From Escherichia phage MIZ6: a DNA stretch of 64,000 bases. Below the pieces are notes generated by a model. That model was not told the DNA's origin and made no database searches. It saw only the letters and a list, made by a program, of their open reading frames with translations. The stretch lies in sequence record OR192075.1; one strand, given 5' to 3'. The position numbers were made by a program, and so were the translations under genes. This document shows, piece after piece, positions 25,211 through 30,721 of the stretch (position 1 is the stretch's first letter; the number at the start of each line of letters is the position of its first letter).

Positions 25211-25474
25211 TTATGATTTTAGTGAATTAACCACTACATCAAAATGATGTACAGAGTACACCTTACGAAACACATACTCATCGTGTTTAGGAATAGCGCC
25301 TAACCGCTTTATTTCGCTCGCTGACACGATAAACCGTTTATCCGGTGCATTTACCTTATATGCTTCAACAACGCACGGAAAACGCGTTTTAGCGAGTTCG
25401 GGATAGTTTTCTGACTCCATCAGGACAATGAATACCCTGTTACATTGATTGTAGAATCCTGTTTTTGATTTCAT
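25211..25474 (-). CDS. hypothetical protein
   Basis: ORF-track entry 25211..25540 overlaps the upstream gene by about 100 nt; start tentatively moved to an internal Met. Confidence 0.3.
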   Translation of the reverse strand: MKSKTGFYNQCNRVFIVLMESENYPELAKTRFPCVVEAYKVNAPDKRFIVSASEIKRLGAIPKHDEYVFRKVYSVHHFDVVVNSLKS

Positions 25475-25781
25475 CAAGTTTTCTTCTCTGTACAATTCGT
25501 GCAATCTTCCTTTCATGATTTCGTTGGTTCTTGTCTTCACAGTTTACCCATTCAACAAGATCTTTACCCAACTCGAAAGCCCATTCTCGGTCTTGCTTTA
25601 CGTTTTGTAGGTATGGACTTTCTGACACTCTACGAAGTGATGTTGTCGTAACAAGAATGATCTCAGGAATGGTCGGATGTTCTTTTCCATATACAATAGG
25701 ACGCGAGTCACTATCAATACCTTGTAAGAAGGTGTATCCTGAATCACTTAGAATCATATACTTTTTCATTTCACACATCAC
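25440..25781 (-). CDS. hypothetical protein
   Basis: 113 aa minus-strand ORF. Confidence 0.35.
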   Translation of the reverse strand: MMCEMKKYMILSDSGYTFLQGIDSDSRPIVYGKEHPTIPEIILVTTTSLRRVSESPYLQNVKQDREWAFELGKDLVEWVNCEDKNQRNHERKIARIVQRRKLDEIKNRILQSM

Positions 25782-26035
25782 AGTTTCCTCAACCAGTTAT
25801 TAAAGCGAGCAAACCATGACGCTTTTCGTGCTTCTTTTACTTTATGTGCACGAAAACCACTGAAACACCATTCATAATCATCACCGAAACATGATTCAAC
25901 AGGAACACCCGCATTTCGTAGTTCTCTGGTCTTTATCATGAATCCTTGACATAAGGGGCGACCTTCAACAATGATAGGAAGTTTAACTTTTTCCATGAAA
26001 GTATACCCAGCACGGTCAATAATTTCAATTTTCAT
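25778..26035 (-). CDS. hypothetical protein
   Basis: 85 aa minus-strand ORF, coupled to neighbours. Confidence 0.35.
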   Translation of the reverse strand: MKIEIIDRAGYTFMEKVKLPIIVEGRPLCQGFMIKTRELRNAGVPVESCFGDDYEWCFSGFRAHKVKEARKASWFARFNNWLRKL

Positions 26036-26280
26036 TTTACATTATCTCCATAGATCTTTCCATCAATATCAATTTCACCAGCGCGAACATCTAGGATAAG
26101 ATGCGGTAGGTGTATGCAGTTTTCCCACCCTACGCGCTTCATTTCTGAAACAGTGACGTAAGCCCACCCGTTCGCTGTAATAAAGTCTACTTCAACCTTG
26201 AGAGGAAAGCAAGACTTTTCTATGTCTTCGAATCCGATAATGTGTTTTGTCGTTGAATATGGAATATATCCGATGATCAT
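26032..26280 (-). CDS. hypothetical protein
   Basis: 82 aa minus-strand ORF. Confidence 0.35.
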   Translation of the reverse strand: MIIGYIPYSTTKHIIGFEDIEKSCFPLKVEVDFITANGWAYVTVSEMKRVGWENCIHLPHLILDVRAGEIDIDGKIYGDNVK

Positions 26281-26738
26281 TTTGTGATCTCCTTATACTC
26301 AACACACCATAAGCGGGTAGCCCATGATAAACGCTCATAACGCTGGCAGAAATCGGACCATAGATATTGTGTACCGTCTTGCATGGTTGAAATATGCGTT
26401 TTCTCACCTACTTTCACGAAAGAAGTATTCGATTTTGTGATCTCGACCGGAGTATATCCGAAAGCGGGTTCCAAGTCAACATCTGAACTAAATGCCAATT
26501 TAACAGAATTTGTTTTTCTGACCGCTGTCCGGTTTCCTTCTGGGTACAACACAGCAGGTTTAGCGCCTAAGCGGATAAACTCAGTATTTTTAATGAACAG
26601 AATATCATGATAACCGTCATATTCCGACACTTCCATAGTAACAGGAAAATTGATATGTGCTAAACCTGGTAGATCTCGCATATCATGAAATGTAGCCATA
26701 ATCTTTTTCATTCTATATTCCTCACTCTTCTGTTTCAT
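26277..26738 (-). CDS. hypothetical protein
   Basis: 153 aa minus-strand ORF. Confidence 0.4.
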   Translation of the reverse strand: MKQKSEEYRMKKIMATFHDMRDLPGLAHINFPVTMEVSEYDGYHDILFIKNTEFIRLGAKPAVLYPEGNRTAVRKTNSVKLAFSSDVDLEPAFGYTPVEITKSNTSFVKVGEKTHISTMQDGTQYLWSDFCQRYERLSWATRLWCVEYKEITK

Positions 26739-26929: not shown

Positions 26930-27220
26930 TCAAATTGTAGTTTTGCGAAGATGGTTATTACATGCTTTTAATGCATCATTCGCGGTGTCATAGCGAGTAT
27001 TATCATAGCACCAATAACCATCTGTCAACCGATAAATTAATCCATCCTTTTTAGCTTCTATGAAAGATAACTCTTTGAAAGTTTCTACTTTCTTTGCTGA
27101 TACTCCACGGTCACGGCGTTTATAGAGTTTAGCTAAAATGCGTTCAGCTTGTTCCTCTTTATCACCTGACAGATCCCAGATGATGTTTCGGATATGCTTG
27201 ATTAATTGTTCAGTGGTCAT
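26930..27220 (-). CDS. hypothetical protein
   Basis: 96 aa; own promoter at 27249-27276 and RBS GGAGAATCAAAG. Confidence 0.4.
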   Translation of the reverse strand: MTTEQLIKHIRNIIWDLSGDKEEQAERILAKLYKRRDRGVSAKKVETFKELSFIEAKKDGLIYRLTDGYWCYDNTRYDTANDALKACNNHLRKTTI

Positions 27221-27248: not shown

Positions 27249-27276
27249 CATTATAGCATTGTGATTATCTTTGTCA
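27249..27276 (-). promoter_or_regulatory. early-type sigma70 promoter
   Basis: Minus-strand TTGACA, 16 bp, TATAAT; preceded by a terminator. Confidence 0.55.
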
Positions 27277-27281
27277 ACACC

Positions 27282-27314
27282 CAAAAACAAAAAAGGCTAC
27301 CCCGAAGGATAGCC
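27282..27314 (-). terminator. rho-independent terminator after the glycine-rich protein gene
   Basis: Minus-strand hairpin GGGCTATCCttcgGGGTAGCC followed by TTTTTTGTTTTT. Confidence 0.6.
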
Positions 27315-27321
27315 CATAAAA

Positions 27322-28107
27322 TTACACGCGAGCACCGTAGATCGTGCCTACTTTATCCCAGCGAGGGGCATTACCAGTAACAGCTTTACCCGCAGCACCA
27401 CCAGAGTGAACAGTTCCTCCAGTACCACCTTTAATATATGAAGATTTGCCAGCAGCTCCCAAATCTCCACCATCTCCTCCATAATGAACCCCAGAAACAG
27501 TGCCTTTACCTGGGGCAGAAATTGTACCAGCAGATGCTGCCGCTGCGCCGCCTCCTGCCGCACCCGCAGCACCAAATGGACGGCCTCCACCGCCGCCAAA
27601 TTTCATATCCATTTGAGGGAAAGGATTGTATCTAGCACCAGCACCGCCACCACCGCCACCACCAATAATACCATTATTGTTTATTCTTAAACGAGTTCCA
27701 ATTCCGTTATTTATTGCATTTCCTCCTGCTCCACCAGCAGAGTTACTTCCGCCATTTCCTCCACGACCTAATACATGAACACCAGAGTTAATAATGAGTG
27801 TTACATATTCGTTTGTCAGTGAGCTAGGGAAATCAAGACAAGGAACGCCAGTAGATTGGGAAACAATATTACCCGTGATAGTAATTACTACCGGAGTAGA
27901 TCCTTGTGCTTTCATCCAGTTAATAAGAGTGTCTTTATTGTAAGAGTTACTAGCACCAATGCTATAATGAATCTCTTTAGAGCGTCCGACCATTGCCGAC
28001 ATATACGCCGGACGACCTAAGCGAACAGCTTGCATTGCGGCGCTCATCCACCGTTGACCAGTCTCGGACACAGCAGATGATCCTACCCATCCAGAAGATA
28101 TTGCCAT
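27322..28107 (-). CDS. glycine-rich protein (about 110-aa N-terminal globular part, then about 150 aa of Gly/Ala/Asn-rich low-complexity sequence)
   Basis: 261 aa; runs of GGNGGSNSAGGAGGN, GGGGGGGAGA, FGGGGGRPFGAAGAAGGGAAAA; not a collagen G-X-Y pattern; RBS GAGGAAATTTT; followed by a terminator. Confidence 0.5.
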   Translation of the reverse strand: MAISSGWVGSSAVSETGQRWMSAAMQAVRLGRPAYMSAMVGRSKEIHYSIGASNSYNKDTLINWMKAQGSTPVVITITGNIVSQSTGVPCLDFPSSLTNEYVTLIINSGVHVLGRGGNGGSNSAGGAGGNAINNGIGTRLRINNNGIIGGGGGGGAGARYNPFPQMDMKFGGGGGRPFGAAGAAGGGAAAASAGTISAPGKGTVSGVHYGGDGGDLGAAGKSSYIKGGTGGTVHSGGAAGKAVTGNAPRWDKVGTIYGARV

Positions 28108-28120
28108 AAAATTTCCTCAC

Positions 28121-28143
28121 AAGAAAAGCCCCAATTAAGGGGC
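28121..28143 (-). terminator. terminator-like hairpin (possible attenuator) just upstream of the glycine-rich protein gene
   Basis: Minus-strand GCCCCttaattGGGGC followed by TTTTCTT; lies between two genes with no promoter after it. Confidence 0.35.
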
Positions 28144-28161
28144 ATTGATTGATAATATTAC

Positions 28162-28383
28162 TTAGATGACCTCTGCTTCACCATTCAGGAAGAAAGACCA
28201 TGTTTTGTTAGGATAGCGAAGCGCCCATGATTCAGCGGTTTTAACACCAGATTCGAACAATTGACGGCTGGTTACTTTAGCCATACCATCTTCGATGGCA
28301 ACGTTTTCAATAATCATCGGGTACTTAGCGCCACGCATGAAACCGAAGCCAGCGGAAGATTTGATAATTTTAACCGTTGCCAT
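28162..28383 (-). CDS. hypothetical protein
   Basis: 73 aa; promoter at 28425-28453 and RBS GGAGAATCAAAA. Confidence 0.4.
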   Translation of the reverse strand: MATVKIIKSSAGFGFMRGAKYPMIIENVAIEDGMAKVTSRQLFESGVKTAESWALRYPNKTWSFFLNGEAEVI

Positions 28384-28424: not shown

Positions 28425-28453
28425 ATTATGCAATAACACCGGAACGCTGTCAA
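28425..28453 (-). promoter_or_regulatory. early-type sigma70 promoter
   Basis: Minus-strand TTGACA, 17 bp, CATAAT, then ACACACATCGAAACGAG leader. Confidence 0.5.
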
Positions 28454-28756: not shown

Positions 28757-29103
28757 GCCAGACCTCGCAAAACACTAATAGCATAATCATGCTGGTTATT
28801 CATAATATCAATTGCATTGTGATAACGAGCTAAACCATCAAGGATAAATTCTTGTTTATCCTGTTTCAGTTTGGTATCACGCGCAGCCATAAGAGCATCA
28901 AGAACAGGTCCAAAGTGATTATCTAATTCATCTTCGGTTGCAATGTTTCCTATTGCCTCGTCGATCCGTGATTCTAATGCTTGCTTTTCGTTGATCACTT
29001 GCTGGGTATATTCCAACACATCAAGAATATCGCGGGTAACGTCGCCATGATAAGGTATCCCCGCATGAAGATGATCGATTAATCGCTGAATATCAATGTT
29101 CAT
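28753..29103 (-). CDS. hypothetical protein
   Basis: 116 aa minus-strand ORF. Confidence 0.35.
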   Translation of the reverse strand: MNIDIQRLIDHLHAGIPYHGDVTRDILDVLEYTQQVINEKQALESRIDEAIGNIATEDELDNHFGPVLDALMAARDTKLKQDKQEFILDGLARYHNAIDIMNNQHDYAISVLRGLA

Positions 29104-29438
29104 TTGTAACCCTCCTCTGAAAGCACATCCCAGATCGTTGCGTCAAGATGCATTAAATTCCACATAATAGAGTCATAACTACCGAAGCCAGAAGTAAAAA
29201 TTACATCACACTGGCGATATGTCTTATGAAAATCGGTGGCTGTCTCTGCATCAATCGGCATATCGTCACCGGAAAGCACCAGACATTTAAGAATCATAAC
29301 TCTGTTAGCCGTTGGCGCTTGCTTAGTCTTTTCAGCATATTTTTCGATGATCCGTTTTGCCTTTTCTTCTTTGATACGTCCAGACCAAATCCGGTTTCGG
29401 TATTGATTCATAATAATTTCAATCACATCATTTTGCAT
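29100..29438 (-). CDS. hypothetical protein
   Basis: 112 aa minus-strand ORF. Confidence 0.35.
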   Translation of the reverse strand: MQNDVIEIIMNQYRNRIWSGRIKEEKAKRIIEKYAEKTKQAPTANRVMILKCLVLSGDDMPIDAETATDFHKTYRQCDVIFTSGFGSYDSIMWNLMHLDATIWDVLSEEGYK

Positions 29439-30653: not shown

Positions 30654-30721
30654 AAGTCATTCCCCCAGATTAAAAATATTCAGTTATATTTATAATCTGG
30701 GGCTTTATTTATGATTAACTC

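Follow-up and report, generated by a model that had tools for sequence, protein, structure and literature searches.

A Glycine-Rich Open Reading Frame of Escherichia Phage MIZ6 Read as a Displaced Gene 38 for a Tail-Fibre Tip Adhesin

Introduction

In most T-even-like phages, host range is determined mainly by Gp38, which is also a target for receptor prediction and therapeutic phage engineering; for this reason its correct recognition matters for annotation. Several public records still name it “hypothetical protein,” “tail assembly protein,” or “assembly catalyst.” We describe here a glycine-rich open reading frame (ORF) of 261 amino acids in DNA of Escherichia phage MIZ6 (sequence record OR192075.1). 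The window, as we use the word, is the whole stretch of 64,000 nucleotides that was analysed, and positions are counted from its first letter. An earlier note on this DNA, made without database searches, had described the ORF as a low-complexity protein of the early region. We conclude with high confidence that it is gene 38 (g38) of a Krischvirus and that it encodes a tail-fibre adhesin of the T2/T6/S16 type of Gp38.

The structure of Gp38 from Salmonella phage S16 provides the main point of reference (PMC6851490). Its N-terminal helical attachment domain docks one monomer on the gp37 trimer via conserved tryptophans; the passage describing this contact speaks of three that insert into pockets of gp37, and gives no residue numbers. 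After the attachment domain come a central beta-helix and two long excursions with ten glycine-rich motifs, which form left-handed polyglycine-II (PGII) helices that make up a “polyglycine sandwich” of three layers. Receptor binding is proposed to take place at the far end of this sandwich, where the loops are hypervariable. In their geometry, PGII helices are akin to the polyproline-II (PPII) helices of collagen (PMC6851490). The gp38 of T4 resembles this family in its gene number and its part in long-tail-fibre biogenesis; it differs in being an assembly chaperone, and in T4 the receptor-binding tip is part of gp37 (PMC3157838, PMC6851490).

For the Krischvirus RB49, a gp37 that ends in a Peptidase_S74 domain has been described as the gp38-dependent fibre type, spontaneous host-range mutants have changes in gp38 only (E230K and Y231S), and AlphaFold models of gp38 have been published (PMC9569957). 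Exchange of gp38 between phages switches the receptor (bioRxiv 10.64898/2026.04.02.716166), and similarity between Gp38 proteins allows the receptor to be predicted in Tequatrovirus, Mosigvirus, and Krischvirus alike (Lutz et al. 2025, PMC12032242). The displacement of g38 from g37 was reported in 2011 (PMC3157838, citing 2002), in 2025 (PMC12032242), and in a 2026 preprint, which places it “approximately 55 kb downstream of gp37” (bioRxiv 10.64898/2026.04.02.716166). The promoter-early stem-loop (PeSL) was defined for the hyperplastic regions of RB49 and phi1 (PMC2839356, PMC4122927). Shuffling by PeSLs has been described for ORFans, and Arbiol 2010 does not mention g38.

Published accounts already cover the window protein, its fold family, the class of its receptor, and its position away from g37. 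New here are the base-level boundaries of the displaced g38 cassette; the coincidence of a cassette edge with a PeSL-type junction; evidence that g38 at the canonical position in some Krischviruses is a secondary import from Tequatrovirus; two mutually exclusive g38 positions in the genus; a specificity segment of RB18 type within a Krischvirus frame; and the finding that no late promoter lies near g38, which raises the question of how an early-type locus expresses a virion protein.

Identity of the Gene

The ORF, whose strand the earlier note had left unstated, lies on the minus strand; it is intact, starts with ATG, and has a ribosome-binding motif read directly from the sequence:

27322..28107, minus strand: g38, 261 amino acids, long-tail-fibre tip adhesin (receptor-binding protein).
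28115..28118, minus strand: Shine-Dalgarno GAGG, 7 nt before the ATG.

We scanned the protein against Pfam, where the curated cut-off is 25 bits for each of the two Gp38 families, and extended the scan to an E-value of 0.1. Gp38_N (PF21721) matches residues 1–40 with 65.6 bits (model positions 1–40 of 40), GP38 (PF05268) matches residues 45–261 with 238.3 bits (1–218 of 218), and no other family appears up to that E-value. Because the ORF is full length against both models, it is not a frameshifted remnant of another gene, a possibility for which the earlier note had allowed. PHROG 2056 (“tail fiber protein; host specificity”) matches with an E-value of 8e-100. Among known structures, chain D of PDB 6F45, which is S16 gp38, aligns over query residues 1–259 and chain residues 1–247 (E-value 8.6e-49), and the GFP-gp38 fusion 9V85 matches with an E-value of 3.6e-30.

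Annotated tail-fibre adhesins of the phages MIZ2, MIZ3, kaaroe, W115, FL37, and Delraymugoa, and of a record named Aragogtheria, are 100% identical to the window protein. Since 2.1 kb around g38 is also 100% identical in nucleotide sequence to MIZ2, we assign the window to a Krischvirus genome (RB49-like, T4-type, Straboviridae). Homologues of Gp38 occupy 800 places in 795 records of annotated phage genomes, so that almost every such record has a single match.

The record OR896826 (“Escherichia phage Aragogtheria”) is a 164,032-bp Krischvirus whose match coordinates are the same as those of Delraymugoa (OR896825). The table of the 2026 preprint lists Aragogtheria as a 110,979-bp siphovirus with the remark “Different from NCBI accession OR896826,” and the record is probably mislabelled. 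Literature searches under the names kaaroe, W115, and FL37 returned unrelated papers only.

Annotation labels for the family range over “hypothetical protein,” “tail assembly protein,” “distal long tail fiber assembly catalyst,” and “tail fiber protein.” The third of these, found as a product name in the RB49 (AY343333) and RB18 (MH553563) records, would fit a gp38 of the T4 type, that is, a tail-fibre assembly chaperone absent from the virion. We consider this very improbable. The authors of the S16 structure describe T4 gp38 as very different in sequence from the S16 type (PMC6851490), whereas both the adhesin family and the S16 adhesin structure align with the window protein along its whole length. 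The RB49 record itself bears the note “similar to T2 and RB69 gp38 adhesin.” Host-range mutations map in gp38 (PMC9569957), the partner gp37 has an intramolecular chaperone domain of its own, and receptor switching on g38 exchange has already been shown for related phages (bioRxiv 10.64898/2026.04.02.716166). The T4-derived label “assembly catalyst” is misleading for this family.

Glycine Motifs and Attachment Domain

The composition described in the earlier note is confirmed, and both strings that it quoted, GGGGGGGAGA and FGGGGGRPFGAAGAAGGGAAAA, are present. Residues 1–112 are of ordinary composition (9% Gly), while residues 113–261 contain 33.6% Gly, 14.8% Ala, and 6.7% Asn, with runs of seven glycines at 149–155 and five at 171–175. 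The parts of the protein discussed below are encoded as follows:

27988..28107, minus strand: codons 1–40, predicted N-terminal attachment domain docking on the tip of the gp37 trimer (Gp38_N match; residues 1–45 are of Krischvirus type).
27388..27771, minus strand: codons 113–240, glycine-rich motifs alternating with hypervariable segments, putative PGII sandwich with the receptor-binding end (by homology to 6F45).

We aligned six Gp38 sequences (the window, GEC-3S, RB49, RB18, MIZ4, and S16), in which the relatives are 45–90% identical overall to the window protein. In the C-terminal domain (residues 113–261), 37 of the 50 glycines are invariant, compared with 20 of the 99 other residues, and insertions, deletions, and substitutions are confined to the segments between the glycine motifs. 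Because the glycines are positionally invariant and the length differences fall between motifs, the pattern reads as the signature of a structural scaffold rather than a flexible linker. From homology to S16 gp38 (6F45) over the full length, we expect that the glycine motifs of the window protein form PGII helices in a rigid three-layer sandwich. The likeness to S16 gp38 is collinear over the full length and takes in the N-terminal domain, the motifs GRGG.GG, G7-8, and GGGGGRP.GA, and the C-terminal strand; the two proteins differ in being only about 45% identical and in their hypervariable loops, which are unrelated.

The earlier note had proposed a flexible glycine-rich protein resembling the translocation domains of colicins or the linkers of filamentous phage attachment proteins, or else a phase-separating factor. 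The high Gly/Ala/Asn content speaks for such a protein, as do the early-type surroundings of the gene, where there are sigma70 promoters and a late promoter is not found close by. Nevertheless, we give it almost no credence. Invariance of 37 of 50 glycines across homologues at these levels of identity is the opposite of compositional low complexity; the homologous S16 structure contains an ordered PGII lattice (PMC6851490); only Gp38 families are found in Pfam; and genetic and receptor data identify a tail-fibre adhesin. Neither the unconserved, disordered glycine region nor the family homology that would mark a colicin translocation domain or a g3p glycine linker is found in the window protein. 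The note's remark that the protein is not collagen-like holds for the sequence, which has no G-X-Y repeat, though PGII geometry is related to that of collagen. Its suggestion of an envelope-interacting or phage-attachment-like factor was loosely right, in that the protein is a tail-fibre adhesin, and wrong as to mechanism and novelty.

A tandem repeat scan of g38 found a single DNA repeat, a 9-nt unit in 2.9 copies within the run of seven glycines. The glycine richness of g38, its runs included, is not slippage-prone at the DNA level. The earlier note had asked whether the repeats vary in length between isolates; alleles do differ in length, and the differences lie within the hypervariable segments between motifs, outside the glycine runs.

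Homology and structure prediction of the N-terminal part, also proposed in the earlier note, met with unequal success: the homology is clear from the full match to Gp38_N, and the single-sequence model, made of the whole protein, was unusable, as described below. W7 and W20 are invariant in the N-terminal domain of all six proteins. Which residues correspond to the three tryptophans of the S16 passage, which come without numbers, can be suggested from the alignment.

Receptor and Partner Fibre

The phage Delraymugoa (CPL00151, 164,032 bp), whose Gp38 is identical to that of the window, has been assigned Tsx and the lipopolysaccharide (LPS) core sugar Kdo by experiment (bioRxiv 10.64898/2026.04.02.716166, Table S8, phage table). 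Tsx is its primary receptor and Kdo its LPS core sugar receptor; the receptor of RB49 is OmpA (bioRxiv 10.64898/2026.04.02.716166).

A Peptidase_S74 domain, a self-cleaving intramolecular chaperone that stands in place of a T4-type receptor-binding needle, is found by Pfam at the C-terminus of gp37 in MIZ2, RB49, and MIZ4. In MIZ2, whose g37 lies outside the window, it covers residues 810–869. By analogy with S16, gp37 would trimerise and shed its chaperone domain, and one Gp38 monomer would then cap each fibre through its N-terminal helical domain (approximately residues 1–45). The central beta-helix of Gp38 would carry two long excursions, whose glycine motifs would form PGII helices and, from these, a rigid sandwich. 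Contact with the outer-membrane receptor would be made by the hypervariable loops that lie at the far end of it.

Several points weigh against this identification and the function attached to it. A single-sequence AlphaFold2 model of the window protein was unusable (predicted local distance difference test [pLDDT] 34, predicted template modelling score [pTM] 0.25), so that the fold rests on homology to 6F45. At residue 35 (codon 28003..28005), the window protein, RB49, and GEC-3S have Tyr where S16, RB18, and MIZ4 have Trp. Being common to RB49 and GEC-3S, this Tyr35 marks the displaced Krischvirus-type N-terminal domain, and it may covary with the Krischvirus gp37 tip. The T4-type late promoter TATAAATA, exact or with one mismatch, was not found on the g38 strand between 28108 and 28796 (approximately 690 bp upstream), leaving late production of a virion protein from this locus without a nearby promoter of that type. 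The functional data come from related phages and not from this exact genome; the Tsx assignment rests on a preprint; and the text of Lutz et al. 2025 names receptors for 12 of its 14 phages, the two others being FL37 and FL38, which carry the window adhesin.

The annotated gp37 of MIZ2 (OR167178) ends in ...ISNSAVNARFN*. The next approximately 75 nt, in another frame, encode LIKAFQEMSEELKAVKAELAELKKN*, the usual end of an RB49-type gp37. There seems to be a 1-nt frameshift in roughly the final 25 codons of the chaperone domain, whether from an error in sequencing or from a real change.

A Mosaic Allele

The window Gp38 is 78% identical to that of RB49 and 90% identical, over residues 6–261, to the K3/T2-like gp38 of the Tequatrovirus phages RB18, Shfl2, and Kha5h. 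These overall values conceal large differences along the protein. Identity to the window Gp38 by segment is as follows:

Residues 1–45: GEC-3S 100%, RB49 96%, RB18 67%.
Residues 46–104: GEC-3S 100%, RB49 100%, RB18 93%.
Residues 105–160: GEC-3S 84%, RB49 79%, RB18 96%.
Residues 161–240: GEC-3S 59%, RB49 49%, RB18 97.5%.
Residues 241–261: GEC-3S 100%, RB49 100%, RB18 86%.

At the nucleotide level, Tequatrovirus phages are 84–88% identical to the window across g38 alone; the rest of the RB18 genome is not alignable to the window by megablast, and RB18 has its g38 in the canonical g37-g38-t position. On these segment-wise identities and the gene-confined nucleotide match, the allele is a mosaic in which a specificity segment of RB18 (Tequatrovirus) type (96–97.5% identical over residues 105–240) is set between a Krischvirus N-terminus and the Krischvirus C-terminal 21 residues. 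Such a mosaic fits the published proposal of recombination at conserved glycine motifs; Trojet et al. 2011 (PMC3157838) put forward modular exchange of this kind.

RB49 and GEC-3S differ from the window in the specificity segment 161–240, and in keeping with this, Delraymugoa has been assigned Tsx and RB49 OmpA. The RB49 residues E230 and Y231, changed in the host-range mutants, align with V233 and H234 of the window protein, within the RB18-type segment.

Displaced Position and Cassette Boundaries

In MIZ2, g37 lies at 65.2–67.9 kb and g38 at 123.3–124.1 kb; g37 is followed by a 79-amino-acid ORF and then the holin gene, with no g38 there. The usual placement of g38 directly downstream of g37, which is typical of the gene and not defining, and which is also that of S16, is thus not found here. 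Krischvirus relatives including RB49 and GEC-3S share the displaced locus of the window, down to its flanking small ORFs, hairpins, and promoter.

That this g38 is a decaying or redundant relic, with the working adhesin encoded elsewhere, could be argued from its distance of 55 kb from the fibre operon and from its absence at this site in some Krischviruses, but we regard the idea as scarcely credible, since the gene is complete and undamaged, nearly all records have one match only, no g38 follows g37 in MIZ2, genomes without the displaced copy carry g38 after g37 instead, and the RB49 host-range mutations map to the displaced copy (PMC9569957).

The adhesin gene is flanked by the following elements:

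28425..28453, minus strand: TTGACA-17-CATAAT (11/12 match), nearest upstream promoter on the g38 strand, before the 73-amino-acid ORF.
28162..28383, minus strand: 73-amino-acid ORF upstream of g38.
28121..28143, minus strand: upstream stem-loop, GCCCC-TTAATT-GGGGC (28143..28128) followed by UUUUCUU; terminator scan, -11.2 kcal/mol, z -2.3; 5-bp GC stem.
27284..27315, minus strand: downstream intrinsic terminator, GGGCUAUCC-UUCG-GGGUAGCC (27315..27294) followed by the U-tract U6GU5; terminator scan, -14.7 kcal/mol, z -4.25.
27250..27277, minus strand: sigma70 early promoter for the next gene, TTGACA-16-TATAAT with TG (12/12 match).
27280..28165, minus strand: present/absent segment of approximately 886 bp (upstream hairpin, g38, and downstream terminator), from alignment with the empty site of kvi.

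About ten Krischvirus genomes, including kvi, LF73P4, KMB43, FL15, FL20, and MIZ4, have an empty site at this locus. In kvi, the stop codon of the upstream 73-amino-acid ORF is followed by 5 nt and then by the -35 element of the next promoter, and it is from this junction that we take the polymorphic unit to be approximately 27280..28165. The promoter spacer, from -35 to just past -10, differs as well, so that unambiguous homology resumes only between the -10 element and the next ATG. This is the interval to which PeSL crossovers have been mapped (Arbiol 2010). The empty site of kvi (MN850615) has a stem-loop inside the early promoter spacer, TTGACA-CGGGGAGAAATCCCCG-TATAAT; in the window it lies ahead of the promoter instead.

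The displaced g38 forms a cassette bounded by stem-loops within a hyperplastic early region, and a terminator and promoter of PeSL type come after it. The downstream unit resembles a PeSL in having a stable stem-loop and then a perfect sigma70 promoter, and in that the right edge of the presence/absence polymorphism relative to kvi lies between -10 and ATG. The upstream side differs, having a stem-loop only and no promoter. Promoter with stem-loop, hyperplastic region, and indel edge are found together at the downstream unit only.

The empty-site phages MIZ4, MIZ5, LF73P4, kvi, FL20, KMB43, FL04, and FL15 have g38 directly after g37 instead, so that two mutually exclusive g38 positions occur in Krischvirus. 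The g38 at the canonical position is a T2-like allele whose product is 52% identical to the window protein, and the module of g37 tip plus g38 is 86–95% identical in nucleotide sequence to Tequatrovirus phages. Downstream of g38 in MIZ4 (OR167180) are 13 nt, TAAAAAGAATTAA, that are identical to the last codons and stop of an RB49-type g37, and homology of MIZ4 to genomes of the displaced type restarts exactly at this remnant. Because of the remnant and the homology restart, these genomes suggest that the canonical arrangement in these Krischviruses is not ancestral and is a secondary replacement, in which a module from a Tequatrovirus-like donor would have entered an RB49-like backbone.

It is tempting to draw these observations together. 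The g38 of Krischvirus could be a self-contained cassette bounded by stem-loop and PeSL, gained and lost as a unit, that may be mobile through PeSL mini-circles, as has been shown for ORFans, perhaps passing from one co-infecting phage to another, and that would be expressed by read-through from early sigma70 promoters without a late promoter of its own. The genus would then have two exclusive solutions, the displaced cassette or an imported Tequatrovirus g37 tip with g38 that left the 13-nt g37 remnant. We put this combined proposal forward as speculative, and think it unlikely.

Flanking Elements and Transcription

The earlier note had reported a terminator-like hairpin before the gene and a strong terminator after it, and both are borne out. 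The downstream terminator has a 9-bp stem and a UUCG loop, and none of 200 shuffled sequences was as stable. The upstream stem-loop, for which the GEC-3S record also annotates a terminator, is predicted to be a weak terminator or an attenuator after the preceding 73-amino-acid ORF.

The early-region location claimed in the same note is also well founded: the neighbourhood of g38 consists of small hypothetical ORFs with sigma70-consensus promoters, and tk and rI lie approximately 2.2–3.2 kb upstream. In the annotated context of kaaroe, g38 lies between tk/rI and dam/nrdD. Since there is no late promoter within approximately 690 bp upstream, g38 is probably transcribed by read-through from upstream promoters, and TTGACA-17-CATAAT at 28425..28453 is a candidate source of such transcripts. 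The GEC-3S record annotates a promoter upstream of the homologous small ORF. The nearest exact TATAAATA is at 30694..30687, before rI. TATGAATA occurs at 28804..28797, within an ORF.

In the whole window, counting both strands, TATAAATA with at most one mismatch is depleted (84 sites versus 135.5 +/- 12). The expectation comes from 100 dinucleotide-preserving shuffles, all of which had at least 84 sites. Exact sites number 4, versus 6.1 expected.

There are six perfect TTGACA-N16-18-TATAAT promoters in the window, five on the minus strand (27277, 24526, 19155, 16651, and 1234) and one on the plus strand (56509). In three of the five on the minus strand (27277, 24526, and 16651), a T-run lies within 45 nt before the promoter; these have the appearance of PeSL-like units scattered through the small-ORF region.

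The two immediate neighbour ORFs of g38 and the 79-amino-acid ORF after g37 have no match in Pfam. Among the small ORFs of the minus strand there are three weakly similar paralogue pairs: 28162..28383 and 25778..26035 (29% identity, E-value 3e-5), 25211..25540 and 26277..26738 (26% identity, E-value 2e-4), and 26930..27220 and 29100..29438 (37% identity, E-value 5e-4). In the kaaroe annotation, VOG6032 holds the ORF just upstream of g38 together with two downstream ORFs.

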